Source: Candidatus Omnitrophota bacterium (GTDB lineage: Bacteria > Omnitrophota > Gorgyraeia > Gygaellales > Profunditerraquicolaceae). From it: 55,795 nucleotides of DNA. The notes under the pieces were generated by a model that was given only the letters and a program-made list of their open reading frames with translations, did no database searches and was not told where the DNA came from. The stretch covers positions 1-55,795 of the forward strand of contig JBAXLM010000003.1 of the NCBI GenBank assembly GCA_037134795.1. The letters are read 5' to 3'. Position 1 is the first letter of the stretch, and every line of letters starts with the position of its first letter. Positions 16,175 to 44,935 of the stretch are shown in pieces. The translations under genes were made by a program, and so were the position numbers.

Positions 16175-19100
16175 TTATTGCTCTAATAACTTCGGTTCTT
16201 TTTCCTGCACCGTAATTTGCGCTAATGCTAATTGTATTTGGGCAACCGGTTTATCTGATTCCAATAGCATTAACATTGCTTTTAAAGACGCATCTGTATC
16301 AGCCACCCTTTCTTCCTCAAACCTAAATATATCGGCAATACAGGACAGTACTTTATCAATATCTTGATTAAAATCTTGTTGCTGAGAACAGGATTGCAGG
16401 TATTCCTTAATTCTTTCACTTGACGGCGTAATGCCTGAAGCGAGCATATTCTCTATCCGCAGCCATTCGCTATTTAATTCAGCTAAGGGAATCGGAGGAA
16501 TAATGCTCACATTAACCTTTTGATTAATCAATACCGGTTGACTGGCTATAGGTAACGCGCGAAAATCAATCCCGCCTGTTTTCTGTTCTTCGTTATAAAC
16601 AGGTGAAGCACTGTTGGCTTGCATTTCGCCGCTCTTCTCCTCAAAATAAAGCGTATACTTTGCGTTTATCATTACAGTATATGTTTCGCCTTCAATAGGC
16701 TTATCCACTATCTCAAACCCTTCGTTACCTAAAGTATTCTTGAAAGCATCTCTTTTAGTTTCATCCTCTATATATAAAGAGATTTTACCTTCAATTTGCC
16801 CGCTTTTTGAAAGAATAGCTTTAGTCATTAAGCTTTGCTCAGTTGGCAGAGGATAAGGATTTAGTATAAATCCTTTCCCCAATAAATAATTTACTATTAG
16901 GAGATTCTGCACATATATGGTAACAAAAGTAAACTGCCTACTCGTAAAAGATTGATCCTGCAATTTATCCAAGATGGCATCTAAAATTACCTTGGCATAA
17001 TTTTCACTGCGGAAATCCGGATTTATATATATGTAATTCAAGAGGCTCTCTCTAAGCAGGATATCAACAAAACCAATCTGTTCGCCATCCTTATTATAAA
17101 ATGCTACTGAAACTATATTTTCTTCCTGCCCTTTGCGCATAGATAGCTTATCACCATTATTTATAGAAATAACCCCTATATCTTCTTTTGGCTCCACTCT
17201 CGGCTGCTTAATCGCCGAAGAGGATCTTTCGTTTGTTTCTTCAGGCGAAAACCCAAGTAAATACGGCTGGACACCTTTTGCTTTAAATGTAGCCACTACA
17301 ATCCCTTGCTCTTTCTTTCGTATATCATTAGCCATAATCTCGTCAAACGGATCCCAGTGATATTCCCCATTACCATCATAATATCCGCCTTCTGTAAAGA
17401 CCCAACCCGCTGACTCAAATAATCTGACTATCCCAGTTGAAAAAAGTGACTTGCCTTCTACAAGCTCTTTAAGTGACTCCTCGCTGGCAATCTCTGTTGT
17501 AATAGTTTTACCATCGGGGAATACCTTTCTTACTTCTTCCAAAATTAATTTTGCAAATCCTTGGTTAAGATAGGATTCATTAGTTATCTTAATATATCTG
17601 GCATTAGAAAAACCCATAGATTTCGTACTTAATTCGAAAAACCCAACCTCTTCTAAGCGTTCATCTTTAAGCACAACAACTCTATCCCAATTATCATTAT
17701 CCCTGCGCTGAACCTTAAATCTATAAATTTTCCCATCTTTCTTTATCTCTAAGCCTTCTATCCTCTTTAAAGCCTTGATCATTTGGGTATCTACTACCGA
17801 TGAGCTGGCCGTTTTATTAGTTATCGCAACGGCAAGCGGTATCTCATAGAAACCTAATCTCCCAATATCCTCGCTAGAAGCTATTTTTTCTTTTATAAGA
17901 TAATCTTTACCAAATTCATTTAATTGTTCCGGGCTCATTTGCTCCGACAGTTCGCGCATCTTATCACTACGAACTTTCTCTATGCGTTTTTGTTCTTCCA
18001 CAGAACCTATCTTAAGTGACAAATCATAATTTTCCTGTTCAATATCAGCTATTTTCCCAATAATATTACGCAATTCAATGTTAGATAAACTCTTTAAGCT
18101 GGGGATTTTTGGTTCAAAGAAATACATCGGTATATTCCTGTTGCCGACTATATTTTTAACTTCTTCTTTATCCTTTATATTTGCTATTATTCCAATTGCG
18201 GATTCATTCTTCATGCGTTCTATATCTACAGCTATTCTTTTTCCCGAATCCCATTTACTTAAAGCGAGCAGCTTGGAAGCATCAAAAAGCAAAATTATAC
18301 TTCCTGAAGAATTAACATCGCCAAAAGATAAATAAGCTTCATTTTGGGTAAAAGGCTCTCCTTTTTGATTAATCCCAAGAAAAACAGCATTGGCCTCTTG
18401 ACCAACCCCTAATCCATTTTCCAGGATGCTTCTTAGTTTAGCTAGATCTGTACCATGCAAACCCAGGCCTTCTTCATTGGGGTCGCGTAAGCCGTCTTTA
18501 AAATCAACAATCTCAACTAAACGCATGGGATATTGAGGATTCTCTAATAATTCTTTATTTACTCTATCTATAAAACGACCCGCCGGAGAAGAAGATTGAT
18601 TATTTATCGGTGAAGAAGCTTGATTATTGGTATCCAATGTTGCCACGGAGAATGCCCCTGAAGTGGAAGCCAGAAGAAACCCTTCTTGTAGTTCAAAAAT
18701 ATCTATCTCGTCATTTAGATTGGTATCGCCCACTAATACTTTGCCAGTGCCAATAGGAAATACATATTGCTTTCCTTCTGCTTTTAATTCAAAAGGCACT
18801 GAAAGAACCCCTGTTTTTTTGTTAAACATAACCTGCCTGTTAATATCATAATCTATGCCTTTAGAATTGCCTAATTTCCCTTTAATTATTTTGAATGCGT
18901 CCAAGAGCATCTGTTCAATAATCAGGCAATTTTTAGGCATACTCCCCATTTTTTCCATTATTTCAAGCGTAGCCTTACGCACCATCTCCTCGCGCTCTAA
19001 AACTGTTTTTCCTTTATTTTCTATGCGGATTTTCTCCTGCAAAATTCTAATCGCCAGCCACTTCTCTAAAACTCCTTCTTTTAGCCATTGGAATAAATCC

Positions 19101-20668
19101 CGGTTTATCACAATTAAGTTTAAATTCTCTAAAACTATAGCCTGGCCTGTGGTTTTTAGACCAGTGAGAAAAAGTACTTTAAATCGGTTGCTGGAAGAAA
19201 ATCTTACTCCATTATTGGCAAGCAATTCGTAGGCTCGCTTAACATACTTTATGCTATTATCGCTATTTGAATAACTAATGCATTCTTTTAAAAAGTTATC
19301 TACTATTTCTATTCCTAACTTGTCGAATAAGCCTTTCTGGAGGCTCAAGCGATAGGCTTTATCAGTAGGCACATAATACTGGTTTATATCCGCGCTGACT
19401 TTTTCCAAAGCTTCAGCTACTCCTGTATTATCTAATGCTAATGCAGCAACAGCTACTCCTGCAACTTTCAAGAATTCCCTGCGGCTAATTCCAACATTAG
19501 AAGGATCACTTGCCGCTTGACTACCCGAAACAACAAACTCCACCAAATTCTTTACTCCTCTAAACATATCTCTTTTTGAAACAATAGCTGAACTAGCAAT
19601 CATCCCTGTAATCTGCGGCCCAAAATTTATCCCTCCGCTCATATAGCTTCTCATACTCTGGCCCTGAGGGGTACGTACTGATTCTTTGGTATCATACTCT
19701 CCCTGCTGGAAGGAACTTTTGTATTGCTGAAAATAATCCTGCTTATCCCAAGCTACCTTTGAAGTAAGGTTAGTAAGATTCCTTTTGTCGATTAACCAAG
19801 AGTAGAGGCCACCTTTGCCATAAAACTTTTGCTTGAACCACTGAGCAAGGATAAGTGAGTAATAAACCTGTCTTAAAGGGGCATATCTTTTGGCGGTGTT
19901 TACATCTTTGGTTAGTTTGGGAATAATTAATTCCCGCATAAGCTGAGAAGAGTATTCATTCAGAGCTTTTTGCCGGTCATCTTTAAAACTGTAGGCAGAT
20001 GAATCTTTTAAGTAGTCTTGCTCCAACATTACCTTTAAGGTTGCTTTGTAGATATAGGCATTATCCGTGGATTCCCTGATAATTATCTCATTCGGAACTA
20101 TCCAGGGCCGTGTCAAAGTAGGAATGCTCACGTTCTCGCCTGCAAAGAGCTCCCCTGCTTTTTTATAAAGCTTACTCCAATATTCTTTGCCTTCGCTGGT
20201 TTGCGGAGAAGTAAAACCTGCGGTATCTTTTTTTAACTGCAGATCAGCTTCAAGAAGAATCTTGCCTATATCTGTTTGCCCTAAATATGGGTCAATGATA
20301 TCTTGCGGAGAATCAGGCCGAAGATTAACCCAAAAACTATCATTAGGCAAAGAGATGCCAATAAAAAAATAATTTAGTAAAGTCTTGGTTGAGTTCTCGA
20401 TTTCTGAAGTTGCTAGATCGCTAGGGTCTCCCTTATCCAAAAGAAGATTAAAGTTGTTATTTAAATTATCATAGGAAATATACCTCAGGTGCGCGGGCCT
20501 AAACTTATTCGCAGTGAAAAAACTTGAGAGGCGGCTAAAGTGGCCGGACAAATCCAGTTCTCCGGCAACCTGGGCAAAAGCCGCCTGCCTGCCGGCAGGC
20601 AGGGATTGCTCAAAAATCAGCAAAAAACAAACTAAAAAATATAATATTTTGGGAAATTTACGTTTCAT
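16175..20668 (-). CDS. Large secreted modular protein (signal peptide; ~350-aa N domain; Tat-like, ART-like and two GNAT-like modules; GGIDF C domain)
   Basis: 1497-aa ORF; SS[P/A/S] linkers; SRREFLK; HGT...L.SIL.NGL; YLNQGFAK and FRSENYAK. Confidence 0.8.
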   Translation of the reverse strand: MKRKFPKILYFLVCFLLIFEQSLPAGRQAAFAQVAGELDLSGHFSRLSSFFTANKFRPAHLRYISYDNLNNNFNLLLDKGDPSDLATSEIENSTKTLLNYFFIGISLPNDSFWVNLRPDSPQDIIDPYLGQTDIGKILLEADLQLKKDTAGFTSPQTSEGKEYWSKLYKKAGELFAGENVSIPTLTRPWIVPNEIIIRESTDNAYIYKATLKVMLEQDYLKDSSAYSFKDDRQKALNEYSSQLMRELIIPKLTKDVNTAKRYAPLRQVYYSLILAQWFKQKFYGKGGLYSWLIDKRNLTNLTSKVAWDKQDYFQQYKSSFQQGEYDTKESVRTPQGQSMRSYMSGGINFGPQITGMIASSAIVSKRDMFRGVKNLVEFVVSGSQAASDPSNVGISRREFLKVAGVAVAALALDNTGVAEALEKVSADINQYYVPTDKAYRLSLQKGLFDKLGIEIVDNFLKECISYSNSDNSIKYVKRAYELLANNGVRFSSSNRFKVLFLTGLKTTGQAIVLENLNLIVINRDLFQWLKEGVLEKWLAIRILQEKIRIENKGKTVLEREEMVRKATLEIMEKMGSMPKNCLIIEQMLLDAFKIIKGKLGNSKGIDYDINRQVMFNKKTGVLSVPFELKAEGKQYVFPIGTGKVLVGDTNLNDEIDIFELQEGFLLASTSGAFSVATLDTNNQASSPINNQSSSPAGRFIDRVNKELLENPQYPMRLVEIVDFKDGLRDPNEEGLGLHGTDLAKLRSILENGLGVGQEANAVFLGINQKGEPFTQNEAYLSFGDVNSSGSIILLFDASKLLALSKWDSGKRIAVDIERMKNESAIGIIANIKDKEEVKNIVGNRNIPMYFFEPKIPSLKSLSNIELRNIIGKIADIEQENYDLSLKIGSVEEQKRIEKVRSDKMRELSEQMSPEQLNEFGKDYLIKEKIASSEDIGRLGFYEIPLAVAITNKTASSSVVDTQMIKALKRIEGLEIKKDGKIYRFKVQRRDNDNWDRVVVLKDERLEEVGFFELSTKSMGFSNARYIKITNESYLNQGFAKLILEEVRKVFPDGKTITTEIASEESLKELVEGKSLFSTGIVRLFESAGWVFTEGGYYDGNGEYHWDPFDEIMANDIRKKEQGIVVATFKAKGVQPYLLGFSPEETNERSSSAIKQPRVEPKEDIGVISINNGDKLSMRKGQEENIVSVAFYNKDGEQIGFVDILLRESLLNYIYINPDFRSENYAKVILDAILDKLQDQSFTSRQFTFVTIYVQNLLIVNYLLGKGFILNPYPLPTEQSLMTKAILSKSGQIEGKISLYIEDETKRDAFKNTLGNEGFEIVDKPIEGETYTVMINAKYTLYFEEKSGEMQANSASPVYNEEQKTGGIDFRALPIASQPVLINQKVNVSIIPPIPLAELNSEWLRIENMLASGITPSSERIKEYLQSCSQQQDFNQDIDKVLSCIADIFRFEEERVADTDASLKAMLMLLESDKPVAQIQLALAQITVQEKEPKLLEQ
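20584..20603. repeat. Family P perfect palindrome CCTGCCTGCCGGCAGGCAGG inside the signal-peptide coding region
   Basis: 20-bp perfect palindrome, translated LPAGRQ. Confidence 0.85.
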
Positions 20669-20880: not shown

Positions 20881-21420
20881 CTACTTTACATATGCCCGAA
20901 TGATTTTTTGCTCGACAATCGGCCGGTCTTCGGTATTAACCGGTGTATTTTCAATTTTTTGTACTACCTCTAAACCAGAAACAACCTCGCCAAAAATAGT
21001 ATGGCGCATATTTAACCAAGGGGTTTTAGCGCAGGTGATAAAAAATTGGCTCCCGTTTGTGTTTGGGCCGGAATTAGCCATAGCTAAAATTCCCGCGGAA
21101 TCAAATTTAGCTACTGGAGTAACCTCATCTTCAAAAGCCTTGCCCCAAATTGACTCTCCTCCCGAACCTGTCCCTGTGGGATCCCCGCCCTGAATCATAA
21201 AACCCTTGATTACACGGTGAAAAATTAGGCCATTATAATAACCTTTTTCTGCTAATTTAATAAAGTTTTCGCATGCCTTAGGAGCTAGGTCAACTTTTAA
21301 TTTAATTTCGATATTTCCCTGGTTAGTCTCTAAAACTACAATTTTCTCATCCATAGCAAAACTTCCTCCGTAACAATAAACTAAACAAATAGTTAATAAT
21401 AAAACAGCTAACTTTTTCAT
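20881..21420 (-). CDS. Secreted cyclophilin-type peptidyl-prolyl isomerase
   Basis: FHRVIKGFMIQGGDP, AMANSGPNTNGSQFFI; signal peptide. Confidence 0.95.
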   Translation of the reverse strand: MKKLAVLLLTICLVYCYGGSFAMDEKIVVLETNQGNIEIKLKVDLAPKACENFIKLAEKGYYNGLIFHRVIKGFMIQGGDPTGTGSGGESIWGKAFEDEVTPVAKFDSAGILAMANSGPNTNGSQFFITCAKTPWLNMRHTIFGEVVSGLEVVQKIENTPVNTEDRPIVEQKIIRAYVK

Positions 21421-22163
21421 ATCTTCTTTTCTCCTTCTTCGTTTCTTAGAGATAAAGCCGTTCTTAAATGCGCAATCTCTTCCGCAAAACTTTTTAATCT
21501 CTTTTCTTTTTCCTCTAAATCTTTTTCTAGCTCTCCATATTTCTCATTCAATTGATTAAACTCCGCCTTTGGTACCCATTCACTGATTTTTTCCTTACGA
21601 TTAAACTCCGCAATGGTAGCTGAATATTCACCTATATCTTTAAGCTGTTTTTCAATCTGATGTTTTTGTATTTGCAGCTGTTCTTCTTTAAGCTTAGCCT
21701 CTGCTTCTTTAGCTTCTAAAGAAGCTTTGGTTTCGCGAATCTCTCGTGACAAATTTACGTTTTTAGTAAACTCCTCCTGTACCTCATTTTCTTTGGCAAT
21801 AAATTTATTCTTTAGATCCAAGTTCTCCGGCCGAATCTTATTTAATTCTGCTTCCGCCCTGGCCACCAAATCCTCTCTGCGTTTCAACCCGTCTAAAAAT
21901 CTAACTTCTTGCTCCCCAGTTGCTTTAAATTCAGATTTTTCTTTCCCATGTGCAATCTTAATCTGGCTTAATTCATTCTCTAACTCAGAAACCCGTTTTT
22001 GCAGCTGTTGTATTTTTTGCTCTTTGCTAGGTTCGTCTGGTAAAATTGGCTTCTTATCACTTTTTTCAGGCTGCGCCTCACCAGGCTTACTCAGTACTCC
22101 AAAAACAGCATAGATAATCATGCCTATTCCTAAAACCACTAGTATAAGCATTATCGTCATCAT
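21417..22163 (-). CDS. Membrane-anchored coiled-coil hypothetical protein
   Basis: N-terminal TM helix, then E/K/Q-rich helical region; ATGA overlap with the next gene. Confidence 0.75.
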   Translation of the reverse strand: MMTIMLILVVLGIGMIIYAVFGVLSKPGEAQPEKSDKKPILPDEPSKEQKIQQLQKRVSELENELSQIKIAHGKEKSEFKATGEQEVRFLDGLKRREDLVARAEAELNKIRPENLDLKNKFIAKENEVQEEFTKNVNLSREIRETKASLEAKEAEAKLKEEQLQIQKHQIEKQLKDIGEYSATIAEFNRKEKISEWVPKAEFNQLNEKYGELEKDLEEKEKRLKSFAEEIAHLRTALSLRNEEGEKKI

Positions 22164-37292: not shown

Positions 37293-37484
37293 TTATTTGC
37301 TTTCAACCACACTAACCCGCACCTTAGCTGGTTTGGCTCCTGGCATACCAAAAAGGCCCTTTTTCTCCTCAGAGAGCATTTCAACTCGCACGCGCTTACG
37401 TGGCAACTTCAATATCTGTAACGCCTTTTCTATGGCTTCTTCTACTGTTTTGCCTTCAGCTTCTATGTATCTCTCGTTCTTCAT
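37293..37484 (-). CDS. Jag N-terminal-domain-only protein
   Basis: EGKTVEEAIEKAL..L, KKGLFG...KPAKVRV; stops at 63 aa with no KH or R3H domain. Confidence 0.85.
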   Translation of the reverse strand: MKNERYIEAEGKTVEEAIEKALQILKLPRKRVRVEMLSEEKKGLFGMPGAKPAKVRVSVVESK

Positions 37485-38998
37485 TTCTGACTATTAATAC
37501 GAAACTGGTATGCAAGCATTAATGCGCTATTCACAAACCAATAAAGCACTAATCCTGATGGCATTTGGTAAAAAATAACCCCAAACATAATTGGCATAAT
37601 TATAGACATGATCTTTTGCTGTTGGGCTGCTTCACCCGTAGCTTTAGCCATAGATATCTTTTGCTGCACAAACATGCCAATAGCCATTAGAATAGGTAAT
37701 ATATTAACCTGGTTACCTAAAAACGGTATTGTATTTTTAAAGACAAAAAGCTGATCTGGAGCAGACAGATCTTTAATCCAGAGGAATTTGGCGCCTCTTA
37801 AAGCTACTGAGCGGATTAATGCTTGATAAAGCGCAAAGAAAATAGGCATTTGCAGCAATAATGGCAAACAACCACTTAGCGGATTAACCTTATGCTCTTT
37901 GTAGAGCTCCATAATCTCCTTATTCAGCTTCTGTGGGTTGTCCTTTAGCTCTTTACGTAAACCTTCAATCTTTGGTTGTAGAAGTTGCATCTCCTTCATA
38001 GAGCGCATTTGTTTTAATGTAAGTGGAAATAATGCAAGATACACTACAACGCTAAGTAAAATTATCGCCCAACCCCAATTATGCACTAAAGTATAAAAGA
38101 ATCCTAATAACTGCAAAAGAAGTTGTGCGATAAAATCAAAAGTACCATAGTAAATACTTGATGTCCATTCTGGTTTAATACTACTTATTGTCTTTAAATC
38201 TTGTGGCCCCAAATAGATACGATATGATTGTCCAATCTGAGCGCCAGGTTTTAGACTAATCTCCTTTGCTAACACACCTACTTCAGATTCTTGAGAGTTA
38301 ATCTTCTTGATATAACCACTGCCTTCTCCAGTTGCCGGCTCAGCAATCAGACAAAAATATTGATCACGTAATCCCATGAATTTTACATCCTGACTATTAA
38401 AATCTTTACCCGGGCCAAGATGCAAAGTTTTTGCATTACCTCCAACAAAAACCCCCTGATAACGCGACTGCACATTTTTTGCGGATAAATCTAGCTTTCC
38501 TAAAACTAATTGGGAAGAGAAAGAAAGAGGGGAGGTAGATAAATTGATCGTTTGTATATCTAACCCTATGGCATAGCTATTGTTAGGAATAGTAAACTTC
38601 TTAATAATCCGTTTATTTTGATCTTGATAAACAAAAGAAATTGAATCTTTATTGATTGTCTCAACTTTAAACAAACTTTTGTCATTACTGTAAAAACCAA
38701 CAGTAAGCGGCAATCGATGCTCTTTATTGTTTTTAAACACCACCTCAACAATAGCAGCCTTGGCGACATCAAAAATAATTTCCCTGGTATCTTGTTTGAA
38801 AGTTACAAGCTCTTTTACAACTTCTGCTTTTTCTTGAGATAAATCTGCAGCTATAACAGAAGGGGAAGATTGCACAATAGATGGCTGCAATTGTGTAACT
38901 TGTTGATTACCAGCGGTTTGTGGCTTGGTAACCAAAGCTGACCAAGCTAAAAGAATTAAAAGCGACAATGCAATAGCCAGTACTAAGCGTTTTTCCAT
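37481..38998 (-). CDS. yidC: Membrane protein insertase YidC
   Basis: NWGWAII, LQPKI, NPLSGCLP.L.QMPIF, FLWI.DLS.PD, PSGLVLYW. Confidence 0.96.
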   Translation of the reverse strand: MEKRLVLAIALSLLILLAWSALVTKPQTAGNQQVTQLQPSIVQSSPSVIAADLSQEKAEVVKELVTFKQDTREIIFDVAKAAIVEVVFKNNKEHRLPLTVGFYSNDKSLFKVETINKDSISFVYQDQNKRIIKKFTIPNNSYAIGLDIQTINLSTSPLSFSSQLVLGKLDLSAKNVQSRYQGVFVGGNAKTLHLGPGKDFNSQDVKFMGLRDQYFCLIAEPATGEGSGYIKKINSQESEVGVLAKEISLKPGAQIGQSYRIYLGPQDLKTISSIKPEWTSSIYYGTFDFIAQLLLQLLGFFYTLVHNWGWAIILLSVVVYLALFPLTLKQMRSMKEMQLLQPKIEGLRKELKDNPQKLNKEIMELYKEHKVNPLSGCLPLLLQMPIFFALYQALIRSVALRGAKFLWIKDLSAPDQLFVFKNTIPFLGNQVNILPILMAIGMFVQQKISMAKATGEAAQQQKIMSIIMPIMFGVIFYQMPSGLVLYWFVNSALMLAYQFRINSQK

Positions 38999-39003
38999 AA
39001 ATT

Positions 39004-39228
39004 TTATACTAAGGGGTCATAACTTGGCCGTCTACAAAAAGGATGGCACCGGCATATTCTTGTTATTCCCTTAAATACTCCTTTAATAATTCCATATTTT
39101 AAAATAGCCTGCTTTGCATACTCTGAACAGCTGGGTTCAAAGCGGCAGGTTGCAGGTATTACCGGCCTGATATACTTTTGATACGCAGTAATTAAAGCTT
39201 GTGTTAAATTTACCAATATTAAACGCAA
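39004..39228 (-). CDS. yidD: Membrane protein insertion efficiency factor
   Basis: [20 protein letters not shown]. Confidence 0.92.
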
Positions 39229-39356
39229 AGCTTCTTTCTGCCTTTCTGTCGTCGGCGTGCCAAAAGTTTACGCCCAGACTTGGTGGCCATTCTACTGCGG
39301 AAACCATGCTGCTTTTTGCCCACAATATTTGTCGGGGTCTTCAAGTTCTTCTTCAT
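39219..39356 (-). CDS. rpmH: 50S ribosomal protein L34 (missing from the ORF track)
   Basis: Translated by hand: [45 protein letters not shown]; SD GGAG upstream. Confidence 0.93.
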
Positions 39357-39633
39357 TTTTTATCTCCCTAGTAATGCATCCACTGTTTATGTAGTTTACT
39401 TAAAAAATGATTTGAAATTTTCTCCGTGAATTTGTGAATTGTAACACAAATTTTTATAGCGGTCAAGTTTTTTGTTGACGTAAATATTTATTATTGTATA
39501 ATAGCTAGCGTTTAACTTTTTTACTTGCAAGGATTTTGGTCTCTGTTATAATGGCTTTATTAATAAATATTTTGAGCTGCATTTTTATCCACAGATTTAT
39601 ACAAGGTGTGCATAAACTGTTAATACTGTAAAT
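39357..39633. other. oriC part 1 (upstream of dnaA) with DnaA boxes
   Basis: TTATCCACA at 39585-39593; TGTGCATAA at 39607-39615; gene orientation flips here. Confidence 0.75.
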
Positions 39634-40971
39634 ATGTTAGAGCTTAATCAGTGCTGGGAAGAGTCGCAAAAAGAGTTAAAGCGCAAGCTCGGTGATACGA
39701 TTTTTTCTACCTGGATCGCGCCGCTCAAGTTTATACCCAAGGATAACAACACCATTGATCTTGAAGCGCCAGATCAGTTTTTCAAAGAATGGGTGGAGAA
39801 ACATTACTTCACGCTGATCCGAGAGGCAGCGCAAAGCAAGGGCGTGGATAATCTGTTAGTAAATTTGGTTGTGGGGAATAAGCTAGACTATCCCGCTCTG
39901 ACCGATAGAACACCGGAACATACTGTTAAAGCAACGCAAGGCACCGGGCTTGTTAATCTTAATTTACGTTATACTTTTGAAAATTTCGTTGTAGGCTCGG
40001 GCAACCGCCACGCGCATGCTTATTCTTTAGCAGTAGCAAACTCCCCGGCCAAAACATATAACCCGTTATTTATTTACGGAGGGGTGGGTTTAGGTAAAAC
40101 ACACCTCATCCAGGCGATCTGTCATCAAATCAAAAACTCTGCGCCTGGCGGAATTAAAATTTGCTACATCTCAAGTGAAAAATTCACTAATGAATTGATT
40201 GACGCCATCCAGCATCATTCCACCGCGGCGTTCCGGCAAAAATACCGCAATGTTGATGTCCTGGTTATTGATGATATCCATTTTATCGCCGGTAAAGAGT
40301 CAACCCAGGAAGAGTTTTTTCACACTTTTAATACTCTTTATGACGCGCATAAGCAGATAGTGTTCTCCTCAGATAGGCCGCCTAAAGAGATCGCTAATTT
40401 ACAGGAAAGACTGGTATCGCGTTTTGGCTGGGGGCTGACTACTGATATTCAACCTCCGGATTTAGAAACACGCGTGGCGATTTTAAAGAAGAAAATTGAG
40501 CGCGAGCCCGTAAGCGTCCCCGATGAAGTAATTTTCTTTATTGCCCAACTTATTAAAACTAATGTACGTGAATTAGAAGGGGCTTTAATTCGTACTATTG
40601 CCTATTCTTTATTAGAAGAAGCACCCGTAACCTTACAATTAGCTAAAGAGGTGCTGAAAGATTTACTCAAAGAACCAAAAAAACTAGTTACTGTCGATTT
40701 TATTCAACGTTCGATAGCAGAAGAGTTTGGTATGACGTTACAGGATATTAAATCTAAGCGCCGCAACAAACAAGTAGTTTTCCCCCGGCAGATCGCCATG
40801 TATTTAAGCAGGGAGTTAACGGAGTTGTCTCTGCCTGAAATTGGAGAGCTTTTTGGCGGGAAAGACCATACTACTGTTTTACATTCCTATAATAAAATTA
40901 AAGAAGAGTTATTGCGGAACGCGGAACTCAAAGAGCGTTTAGAAAAAATTATACAAGGGATTCGGCAGTAA
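39634..40971 (+). CDS. dnaA: Chromosomal replication initiator DnaA
   Basis: YNPLFIYGGVGLGKTHL, IDDIHF, RELEGAL, GGKDHTTVLH. Confidence 0.98.
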   Translation: MLELNQCWEESQKELKRKLGDTIFSTWIAPLKFIPKDNNTIDLEAPDQFFKEWVEKHYFTLIREAAQSKGVDNLLVNLVVGNKLDYPALTDRTPEHTVKATQGTGLVNLNLRYTFENFVVGSGNRHAHAYSLAVANSPAKTYNPLFIYGGVGLGKTHLIQAICHQIKNSAPGGIKICYISSEKFTNELIDAIQHHSTAAFRQKYRNVDVLVIDDIHFIAGKESTQEEFFHTFNTLYDAHKQIVFSSDRPPKEIANLQERLVSRFGWGLTTDIQPPDLETRVAILKKKIEREPVSVPDEVIFFIAQLIKTNVRELEGALIRTIAYSLLEEAPVTLQLAKEVLKDLLKEPKKLVTVDFIQRSIAEEFGMTLQDIKSKRRNKQVVFPRQIAMYLSRELTELSLPEIGELFGGKDHTTVLHSYNKIKEELLRNAELKERLEKIIQGIRQ

Positions 40972-41111
40972 TCCACTGGATATTCAAAGGATAGTTTTGC
41001 TCTAATTGTGGTAAAAATATATAGTTAAAGAGTTTTTAACAGAAATCTAACCCCTTTACTACTATTACGATATTAAGTTTCTATATATATATTAATAGAA
41101 GGAGATAAAAA
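40972..41111. other. oriC part 2 (dnaA-dnaN) with DnaA-trio-like run and AT-rich unwinding element
   Basis: CCCC then TACTACTATTAC (41057-41068) then TATATATATATTAAT, resembling the Bacillus-type basal unwinding system. Confidence 0.6.
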
Positions 41112-42203
41112 ATGAAGTTTAAAGTACAAAAAAGTATTTTAATTAACGCCATTCAGATCGTACAAAACGTTATAAGCACAAAAGCAGCTTTGCCTATTCT
41201 TTCTAATATATTAATAGAGGCTCAAGTAGACGGGGTAGCTTTAACTGCTACTGACTTAGATATAGGAATAACCTGTGTAATCCCTGTGGATATCCAGGAA
41301 CAAGGGGCGATTACTATTCCTGCTAAAAGATTTAGCGATATTATTAAAGAATTCCCTTTAGAGTCTGTGAGTATTACTACGAAAAAAAACAACCTGGTAA
41401 TTATTGATTCGGAGGCATGTCAGTTTAAAATTATGGGGTTGGGCCGCGAAGAGTTTCCTAAATTGCCCGAGTTTAAAGATAAAAAAGTGATTAAAATTGA
41501 GCAAGCCCTTTTAAAGCAAATGTTATCCTTGACTTCTTTTGCGGTTTCTGGTGATGAAACCCGCTATGTGTTAAATGGAACACTTTTTAAAATTAACAAA
41601 GGAGTTTTAACTCTTGTGTCTACCGACGGCAAAAGGCTGGCTATCGCAGAGAAAAAGTTGGGGGCCGAAGAAGACGTGGACTTACAAATAATTATCCCGA
41701 TTAAAACCATTCATGAGTTAAACCGCAATCTTAAAGACGAGGGAGAATTATCTTTAATTGTAGGCAGTAATCAGGCATTGTTTGATTTGGGGGCTGTTGT
41801 GGTAATTTCGCGTTTGATAGAGGGGGAATTTCCCGACTATAAACAGGTGATTCCAGTAGCATCGGAAAATAAGATGAAGGTGGCACGCAGCCAGTTTTTA
41901 TTGGCGGTAAAAAGAGCGGCACTTTTAGCAACCCCGGATTATCAGGGAGTAAAGTTAGAGGTTTTTAAAAATAAACTAGTTGTGTCAAAGTCAACGCCTG
42001 ATGTAGGCGAGTCGCGGGAAGAGTTGGTTGTGGAATATCAGGGGCGCGAGTTGGCAATTGGGTTTAACCCCGTTTATCTAATTGATATTTTGAAAAACCT
42101 CAGCGAGGAAACAATTAACTTGGAATTAACGGATAGCGAGAAACCCGGGGTGATCCGTATTAGCGGGTATGTGTATATAGTTTTACCTATGCGGCTTAAT
42201 TAG
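41112..42203 (+). CDS. dnaN: DNA polymerase III beta sliding clamp
   Basis: ATDL, TDG.RLA, SRLIEGEFPDY, C-terminal LPMR. Confidence 0.97.
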   Translation: MKFKVQKSILINAIQIVQNVISTKAALPILSNILIEAQVDGVALTATDLDIGITCVIPVDIQEQGAITIPAKRFSDIIKEFPLESVSITTKKNNLVIIDSEACQFKIMGLGREEFPKLPEFKDKKVIKIEQALLKQMLSLTSFAVSGDETRYVLNGTLFKINKGVLTLVSTDGKRLAIAEKKLGAEEDVDLQIIIPIKTIHELNRNLKDEGELSLIVGSNQALFDLGAVVVISRLIEGEFPDYKQVIPVASENKMKVARSQFLLAVKRAALLATPDYQGVKLEVFKNKLVVSKSTPDVGESREELVVEYQGRELAIGFNPVYLIDILKNLSEETINLELTDSEKPGVIRISGYVYIVLPMRLN

Positions 42204-42208
42204 CTAAC

Positions 42209-42493
42209 ATGGAGCCTTTGAAAAATACATTAGATGCGCTTATGCTCGGCCTCTCGCATAAAAAAACAGGTTGTCCAGGCGCTGGCCCTGAGCAGTGGTT
42301 AAAAAAAGCCTTGACAAAGAAAGAGTTGCAGCATATAAAAGTTAAATATTTCAGTAAGGGCGTGCTTAGTTTAAACGTAGATTCTTCCGTGTGGTTATAT
42401 ATTTTAAGCCTGAAGAAAGAAGAGCTACTGAAGATATTACAAAAAGAAGCTCCTGCGGTCAGAAATATTAATTTACGCATTGGGGAAATGTAA
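42209..42493 (+). CDS. DUF721/DciA-like protein
   Basis: W...H......GVL...VDSSVW...L...K..LL pattern; position before gyrB. Confidence 0.7.
   Translation: MEPLKNTLDALMLGLSHKKTGCPGAGPEQWLKKALTKKELQHIKVKYFSKGVLSLNVDSSVWLYILSLKKEELLKILQKEAPAVRNINLRIGEM

Positions 42494-44935
<2,442 letters not shown>

Follow-up and report, generated by a model that had tools for sequence, protein, structure and literature searches.

The window analysed here is a stretch of 55,795 nucleotides, positions 1 to 55,795 of contig JBAXLM010000003.1 (assembly GCA_037134795.1), from a bacterium of Candidatus Omnitrophota whose genome is represented by 1.28 Mb in 91 contigs and is 92% complete. On its minus strand, positions 16175-20668 hold an uninterrupted open reading frame (ORF) of 1,497 amino acids (aa), running from ATG to TAA, and the subject of this report is the protein that it encodes: a probably exported chain in which a constant head and a constant tail enclose four exchangeable cargo modules, set apart by a short linker peptide. 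A sequence-only reading of the window had described it as enzyme-like modules strung between GGINF and GGIDF motifs, and the ORF and every motif named there do translate where that reading had put them.

All parts lie on the minus strand and are given here in protein order. The predicted Sec-type signal peptide (20573-20668; aa 1-32, predicted cut AFA|Q) precedes the conserved head domain (19616-20569; aa 34-351), which ends in SGGINF, the GGINF itself lying at 19622-19636. Linker 1 (ASSAI; 19583-19597; aa 358-362) opens the cargo, and module 1 (18620-19582; aa 363-683, 321 aa) contains an internal twin-arginine translocation (Tat)-type signal, ISRREFLKVAGVAVAALAL (19433-19489; aa 394-412). 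Linker 2 is double, ASSPI...SSSPA, and reads ASSPINNQSSSPA (18581-18619; aa 684-696); beyond it, module 2 (17810-18580; aa 697-953, 257 aa) has candidate ADP-ribosyltransferase (ART)-like HGT/Y/E positions, with the HGT motif in the stretch LHGTDLAKLRSILENGL, translated from 18410-18460. Linker 3 (ASSSV; 17795-17809; aa 954-958) separates this from module 3 (17225-17794; aa 959-1148, 190 aa), which appears distantly GNAT-like, and linker 4 (SSSAI; 17210-17224; aa 1149-1153) separates that in turn from module 4 (16613-17209; aa 1154-1352, 199 aa), which is GNAT-like at a near-threshold score. After linker 5 (SASPV; 16598-16612; aa 1353-1357) comes the conserved tail (16178-16582; aa 1363-1497), ~135 aa with two Cys, which starts GGIDFRALPI and has its GGIDF at 16562-16576. 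The GGIDF thus stands as proposed before the C-terminal part, but the helical character ascribed to that part is a crude propensity estimate only. Similarly, both bracketing motifs are present but their symmetry is only loose: across the family, the head ends in GG[IMLV]x[LFV], but the tail begins with a near-invariant GGID[FL]R.LP. That the end of the head and the start of the tail might represent one junction duplicated, or a repeat in the DNA, was rejected, as the extended tail motif occurs in only 3 of 185 head ends and a nucleotide repeat is absent.

The head, ~320 aa long, defines a very large family. In an exhaustive search, 7,445 cluster representatives matched it at E<=1e-3, and 5,466 of these still did so at E<=1e-30. 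Among the 150 matches listed, lengths run from 453 to 7,391 aa, and 146 have the head starting no more than 40 residues from the N terminus. It is common to 871 proteins of 823-2,620 aa and was found in 70 of 301 sampled genomes of the phylum, in one to many copies, with up to 75 first-look candidates in a single genome. The tail evolves faster; a search with it as a single query found it in 35 of the 301 genomes, within the same long frames as the head. In 155 of 201 family members it stands at the very C-terminal end, and in its alignment (A2) G-G-I-D is invariant. Wherever the source name of a head-bearing protein states a phylum, it is Candidatus Omnitrophota or Omnitrophica, and for all genomes among the matches listed the class is that of the window's own genome; as far as sampled, the family is restricted to one class of Candidatus Omnitrophota. 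What lies between the ends is diverse. Precomputed Pfam labels of varied kinds are carried by 54 of the 120 head-bearing proteins listed, and the source names include GGDEF, methyltransferases, metallophosphoesterases, cellobiose phosphorylase, PGK, GAPDH, and others; where a cargo family name was attached to a Pfam accession without a re-scan, it is the name that we take that accession to bear. At the other extreme, relative P0183 (609 aa) consists of the head and the tail with ~190 linker-rich residues between them, and the chassis is thus able to exist almost empty.

Head and tail are apparently undescribed, and we regard them as two candidate new domains. No consistent family emerged when 51 heads and 28 tails were compared with Pfam, the head profile had no PDB match at E<=10, and the whole protein had none below E 0.44. 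Residues invariant in the head are mostly aromatic, Pro, Gly, Asp, Lys, Asn, or Arg, with no invariant His or Cys among them. For this type of head, a TIKI/TraB/GumN hydrolase-like nature is not supported at sequence level: PF01963 matched none of the 51 heads, the hhalign probability was 0.3%, and the head is without an invariant His; PF01963 matched only one of 121 genomes, and that one was not head-bearing. The labels PF26216 and PF26217 attached to P0069 and P0088 were not reproduced by a local Pfam scan of both proteins. No conclusion is drawn from an apparently head-less tail in genome G119, because the contig ends within that frame. A conserved C-terminal extension of the form ...T[VI]..KEP.L.EQ (the last ~25 columns of A2; window 16178-16250) is found in about half of the tails, including this one, and could be a separate terminal signal. 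The earlier view that the system is undescribed agrees with our finding no account of it in the searchable literature: no description of head, tail, or linker pentapeptide was found there, although the supplements of the papers cited below might list such architectures.

The linkers are as regular as the ends. That the modules are bounded by similar short linkers had been proposed from this one sequence, and all five were located. The motif [AST]SS[PAS][IVAL] occurs five times in the protein vs 0.095 expected, a count that 0 of 2000 shuffles reached. In 202 family proteins the same motif is found 452 times vs 20.6 expected, and the simpler SSP[IVLA] 393 times vs 24.9 expected (357,353 residues), with A or S preferred just before it; the linker pentapeptide may be written [A/S]-S-S-[P/A]-[V/I/L]. 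Spacing to the tail is also regular, with a median of 11 residues from the last linker to GGIDF in 72 family members. The codons at the five linkers of this protein differ, indicating that it is the peptide, and not an underlying DNA site, that is under selection, and the possibility that the linkers are DNA recombination sites was ruled out on the same grounds.

Each of the four modules recurs, at approximately full length, in different relatives and at different positions. Whole-block homologs of module 1 were found in P0012, P0003, P0005, and P0123; of module 2 in P0003, P0012, P0008, and genome G095; of module 3 in P0018, P0034, P0036, and P0135; and of module 4 in P0006, P0007, P0010, and P0004. 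Moreover, the identities of the separate parts are discordant. Against P0006 the head is 75% identical and both module 4 and the tail are 95% identical; against P0003 the values are 91% for the head, 60% for module 1, 88% for module 2, and 92% for the tail; and against P0010 and P0004 module 4 is 83-85%, the head 75-76%, and the tail 58-60% identical, the values for P0010 being 85%, 75%, and 60%, respectively. Over all pairs of the 202 family proteins, homology breakpoints internal to the cargo fell within 10 aa of a linker for 16.2% of 569 starts and 13.5% of 1,747 ends, vs 4.1% of random positions.

Comparison at one fixed position of the chromosome leads the same way. The gene lies between a secreted cyclophilin gene and a downstream UvrD-type helicase gene, and the same slot in three congeners (G095, G272, and G273) holds genes of 2,971, 2,692, and 1,266 aa, respectively. 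The G095 gene has modules 2 and 4 in common with ours, with homology that starts at aa 1149, in linker 4; in that of G272 the modules of this protein are represented by no more than a relative of module 3 at 37% identity; and that of G273 has only head and tail in common with it. Identities to these congeners are 86-91% for UvrD and 88-89% for the cyclophilin vs 66-72% for the head and 43-77% for the tail, from which it follows that turnover of the whole gene is more rapid than that of the genes around it. Metagenome contigs supply two further junctions. In one contig of run X3, residue 1148 (the end of module 3) is joined to residue 1365 (the first G of GGIDF); at this joint, at 17226, 649 nt are skipped and 13 nt lie between, a net in-frame loss of 212 codons that removes module 4. 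Depth there is 3.6, with 52 letters on the shorter side. In a contig of run X2 the match ends at 17221, on the linker between modules 3 and 4, the lack of cover over 17224-17777 in that run being a gap; run X1, from which the window itself probably stems, served as a control only. These contigs come from relatives and show natural arrangements, not events in this strain. Overall, the comparisons strongly support a mosaic gene that arose by recombination and occupies a fixed slot of the core chromosome, its modules being exchanged as whole blocks with breakpoints enriched at linkers. A constant chassis with interchangeable cargo, as the sequence-only reading had supposed, accords with the common ends, the recurrence of whole blocks in different relatives, and the discordant identities of the parts; end-to-end alignment with constant middle domains, which would have spoken against it, was not what we found, as the middles of relatives differ.

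That reading had also foreseen many paralogs with conserved ends and unrelated middles. Thousands of relatives do have common ends and differing middles, but this genome itself has exactly one paralog, of 1,935 aa on contig C2 (5642-11449), with a head 61% identical over 366 aa and a tail 31% identical over 127 aa. Its middle is unrelated to that of the present protein and holds a divergent PGK, which scores 41.7 bits to the nearest solved PGK; a GAPDH-like part was too faint to accept (15 bits vs a cut-off of 367). The gene immediately upstream of the paralog is GroEL-like, as judged by eye from the translated sequence.

Several features suggest that the chain is likely exported. Its N terminus, MKRKFPK, has four K/R in the first seven residues and is followed by a 12-residue hydrophobic core and AFA|Q. 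Of 182 family records whose N terminus is intact, 166 show the three corresponding signal-peptide features, and 127 have GFA|Q. The only membrane-like segment of this protein is at aa 5-23, and 104 of 148 complete family members have none after residue 45. The Cys content is also unusual: cargo has 0.22% (209,300 residues) and the head 0.07%, vs 2.0% in the tail and 1.24% in the remaining frames of this genome that reach 200 aa (817 frames); in this protein there is no Cys at all in the head or in modules 2-4. Such Cys-poor cargo is in keeping with a chain that passes through membranes in the unfolded state and acquires its fold outside the cytoplasm, and the passengers of autotransporters are likewise poor in Cys. 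Three secretin genes are present in the 1.28-Mb genome (contigs C66, C22, and C71). The signal peptide and export that had been proposed are thereby upheld, although the support is indirect.

What the four modules do is less clear from their sequences. The only elements that Pfam and NCBIfam recognised in the protein were the internal twin-arginine signal and the near-threshold GNAT match. Module 4 matches Acetyltransf_1 at 19.7 bits vs a Pfam cut-off of 20.7 (E 0.001). Module 3 has no direct Pfam match, and BLASTP of module 3 against module 4 gives nothing; however, hhalign of module 3 against the GNAT-matching stretch of module 4 gave a probability of 85.7% (E 5.4e-6), whereas the five other module pairs reached at most 3.8%. 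The acetyl-CoA loop of GNAT enzymes has the consensus Q/R-x-x-G-x-G/A, with respect to which the loops of both modules look degenerate. As for the GNAT resemblance proposed for modules 3 and 4, module 4 is just under the cut-off and module 3 is distantly linked to it, but neither has a match above a curated cut-off, and we consider a GNAT-like nature of both to be moderately supported. In module 2, H738 (in HGT), Y779 (the Tyr in NEAYLSFG), and E852 (the Glu in YFFEP) are invariant in five sequences of 64-84% identity. These positions possibly correspond to the PARP HG[ST] motif and to an ART-like H/Y/E pattern, a resemblance that is unproven: a DarT/PARP lead from the atlas scored 0.89 at rank 26, which is at noise level, and the module had no Pfam, NCBIfam, or PDB sequence match. 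Within the sensitivity of a word-index search, no free-standing relatives were found for module 2 (141-450 aa) or for module 1 (176-562 aa).

Module 1 is of interest for its Tat-type signal, which lies at residues 394-412 and not at the precursor N terminus. Pfam TAT_signal scores 23.9 bits vs a cut-off of 22.7 when the module is scanned alone, and just below the cut-off in a scan of the whole protein; TIGR01409 scores 22 bits vs 16.7. The motif ISRR.FL is kept in all five module-1 homologs. Five further family members have internal Tat-type signals vs 0.00 expected, and three of these five start 6-19 residues after a linker. Neither TatC nor TatA was found in this 92%-complete genome; TatC is present in 7 of 41 genomes of the taxonomic family but not in the 95%-complete congener G095.

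In this assembly no free-standing PGK and no TIM or GAPDH above cut-off was found, and the only PGK detected is the cargo of the paralog. The possibility that a chassis-borne PGK is the only one of the cell was rejected, because a canonical free PGK, scoring 516-545 bits, is present in 36 of 40 further genomes from the taxonomic family, whereas copies in long frames score ~100-214 bits (128 bits for the paralog of this genome). Given these canonical copies in relatives, the lack of a free PGK, GAPDH, and TIM here is probably an assembly gap; gap, pgk, and tpi often form one operon. On their scores, the PGK copies in long frames are divergent extras, and the cargo enzymes more generally are judged to be specialised extras.

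The linker is not confined to head-bearing genes. Giant open frames rich in SSP[IVLA] and running off their contigs were found in this genome on C4 (36 motifs), C34 (12), C58 (8), and C69 (3); these four and the two chassis genes account for 63 of the 100 occurrences of the motif in all frames of at least 100 aa. The four frames measure 17,780, 4,297, 1,950, and 1,552 aa, respectively, fill their whole contigs, and have 0.34-0.75% Cys. One or more giant genes, present here in pieces, probably account for them. No head or tail was found in them, and no module shared with the chassis gene at E<=1e-4, suggesting that the linker grammar, but not the chassis, is shared with Archaeovorin-like giant genes. 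In genome G222, a PGK-like domain (contig C1:215138-215983) lies inside an open frame of 68,606 aa, which indicates that glycolytic-enzyme cargo also occurs in true giant genes.

Some features of the surroundings may be noted. At 29 loci elsewhere, the upstream neighbour is rsmI-like in 12, and in 10 of those a glmS-like gene precedes the rsmI-like one (by eye). In the window itself, 21417-22163 (minus strand), between the cyclophilin gene and pheT, encodes a 248-aa protein with an N-terminal hydrophobic segment and a Lys/Glu-rich, coiled-coil-like appearance, for which there was no Pfam match at E<=1e-5. Farther away, 37481-44935 contains YidC, a 635-bp gap, dnaA, dnaN, and gyrB, and coincides with the cumulative GC-skew minimum; the window thus spans a likely replication origin, ~19 kb from the chassis gene.

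The interpretation that we favour, and hold with fair though by no means full confidence, is that a Sec signal, a head, linker-separated swappable modules, and a tail together make up an exported protein whose modules act outside the cytoplasm of the producer and whose linker is recognised by an enzyme. The chain, nearly devoid of cysteine, would leave through Sec; head and tail would be its constant handling parts, serving export, anchoring, assembly, or delivery; and the modules, here one with a Tat signal, one possibly ART-like, and two putatively GNAT-like, would work on the cell's own surface or on or in another cell. The pentapeptide would then be the site of a processing protease or a modifying enzyme and not a mere spacer. 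Taken in this way, the gene looks like a general carrier for exported enzymes and not a one-off toxin; cleavage at the linkers, delivery into other cells, and a toxin role are hypotheses. A number of points weigh against this interpretation. Cleavage is pure inference, and no invariant His, Cys, or Ser triad suggesting self-processing was found in the head. Membrane-like segments do occur in 44 of the 148 complete members, and no dedicated partner gene was found upstream, where the neighbours are housekeeping genes. An internal Tat signal has no place in a chain exported through Sec, and no TatC or TatA was found here. Many cargo types of the family need ATP, GTP, S-adenosylmethionine, NAD, or acetyl-CoA, which are not available outside the cytoplasm, and the site of action of such cargo is unexplained unless it enters another cell.

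The export features themselves would serve equally for a protein that stays whole and is anchored or assembled through head and tail as a scaffold that keeps its enzymes at the surface or in the periplasm, much as a cell coat or the enzyme display of a cellulosome does, with the Ser-Ser-Pro linkers as flexible and possibly O-glycosylated spacers. Ser/Pro/Ala-rich linkers are targets of O-glycosylation in other bacteria, and the density of the motif in giant frames, such as that on C4, speaks for the same arrangement. We nevertheless think such a scaffold rather unlikely: flexible linkers of the ordinary kind are under less constraint than this strict pentapeptide, cargo dependent on nucleotide cofactors would be idle at the surface, and no lipobox, membrane helix, or known cell-wall-binding domain was found in this protein. 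Such cargo would make sense in the cytoplasm of another cell, as in an effector array resembling MARTX or polymorphic toxins, in which head and tail would translocate the chain and modules (ART, acetyltransferases) would be freed in the target by linker cleavage. The constant ends with recombining cargo, the invariant HGT, Tyr, and Glu of module 2 with its weak DarT/PARP lead, and a related cultured Omnitrophota predator that is reported to pass RNA into archaeal cells (Kizina et al. 2026, PMC13153191) would all suit it. Much of the family's cargo, however, belongs to ordinary sugar and nucleotide metabolism and not to toxins, and no RTX repeats, cysteine-protease processing domain, Rhs or contact-dependent inhibition (CDI) parts, or downstream immunity gene were found; an array of this kind is improbable in our judgement. 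A bolder version, which we offer as speculation and rate slightly lower still, has head and tail as a dedicated Omnitrophota device that moves strings of cytoplasm-type enzymes out of the cell and into the cytoplasm of prey or host, where a protease would free the modules at Ser-Ser-Pro and, as the producer appears to be without Tat, the Tat system of the target would read the signal of module 1 and other Tat modules.

The internal Tat signals suggest yet another arrangement, a cytoplasmic polyprotein in which the linkers are cut inside the producer, the enzymes remain there, and the Tat-signal modules are exported alone. It would account for the excess of such signals in other members, several of them shortly after a linker, and for the conservation of the twin-arginine motif among module-1 homologs, and the location of the only PGK of the assembly inside the paralog might seem to favour it. 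This last argument collapses with the free PGK of 36 of 40 relatives, and the N-terminal Sec-type signal of the family, the strong depletion of Cys in the cargo, the lack of detectable TatC and TatA in this genome, and the rarity of TatC in its taxonomic family (7 of 41) leave the polyprotein with very little probability. The exported carrier remains the interpretation that we prefer.

Omnitrophota are widespread, ultra-small, and largely uncultured, and are suspected to be predators or parasites; long multi-enzyme proteins have been reported from them without being understood. A fixed signal, head, tail, and pentapeptide around recombining modules would amount to a testable grammar for building, diversifying, and possibly delivering extracellular enzymes, and the family yields two putative new domains and a candidate processing or modification site. 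Several known systems are built in a comparable way. Flagellins have conserved N- and C-terminal ends around a hypervariable, sometimes enzymatic middle, and resemble the present protein in having conserved ends around a variable insert; their ends are the helical D0/D1 and they have no Sec signal, whereas the protein described here has one and matched no flagellin Pfam family. In MARTX toxins, which use type I secretion, conserved N- and C-terminal regions frame an effector array that differs between strains through recombination, and constant ends around an array that varies by recombination are what we observe as well. Unlike MARTX, this protein has a Sec signal, has no RTX repeats or cysteine protease domain (Pfam and NCBIfam, E<=1), and belongs to a family whose cargo is largely metabolic; the lack of recognisable RTX, RHS, or CDI parts had been pointed out before and was reproduced by Pfam and NCBIfam scans. 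It also differs from polymorphic, CDI, and Rhs toxins in that its C terminus is constant and its downstream gene is the UvrD-type helicase, not an immunity gene. A whole-protein Pfam scan gave no TPS-domain match as in TpsA, and the tail matched no type IX sorting domain (of the Por_Secre_tail type) in NCBIfam or Pfam.

The oomycete Crinkler (CRN) effectors are described as having a signal peptide and a conserved header ending in HVLVxxP, a recombination hotspot at which diverse C-terminal modules are joined (PMC5289972). CRN proteins and the present family are alike in their signal peptide and conserved N-terminal part, short junction motif, and variable cargo. CRN effectors are, however, eukaryotic, have a single C-terminal cargo, are without a conserved tail, and have no sequence in common with the family; the junction motif described here is instead repeated between several modules, and its codons vary. 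Also comparable are the giant and long multi-enzyme proteins of the Omnitrophota themselves, for which a signal peptide with methyltransferases, NUDIX, GNAT, HEAT repeats, glycolytic enzymes, and pyruvate-phosphate dikinase has been reported (West-Roberts et al. 2023, 10.1101/2023.11.21.568195; 2026 preprint 10.64898/2026.06.07.730766). The portions of these two accounts available to us do not mention the head, the tail, or the linker pentapeptide for such Archaeovorin-type giants, which, as described there, reach tens of thousands of residues vs 1,497 aa here; no membrane helices, SecA-like part, or C39/S8 peptidase domain was found in the present protein. A cargo repertoire like that of Archaeovorin is present across the family, although in this protein only the GNAT-like modules were recognised. 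The two groups have in common the phylum and signal-peptide-bearing strings of enzymes, and the SSP[IVLA] linker of the chassis gene recurs in this genome's own giant frames.

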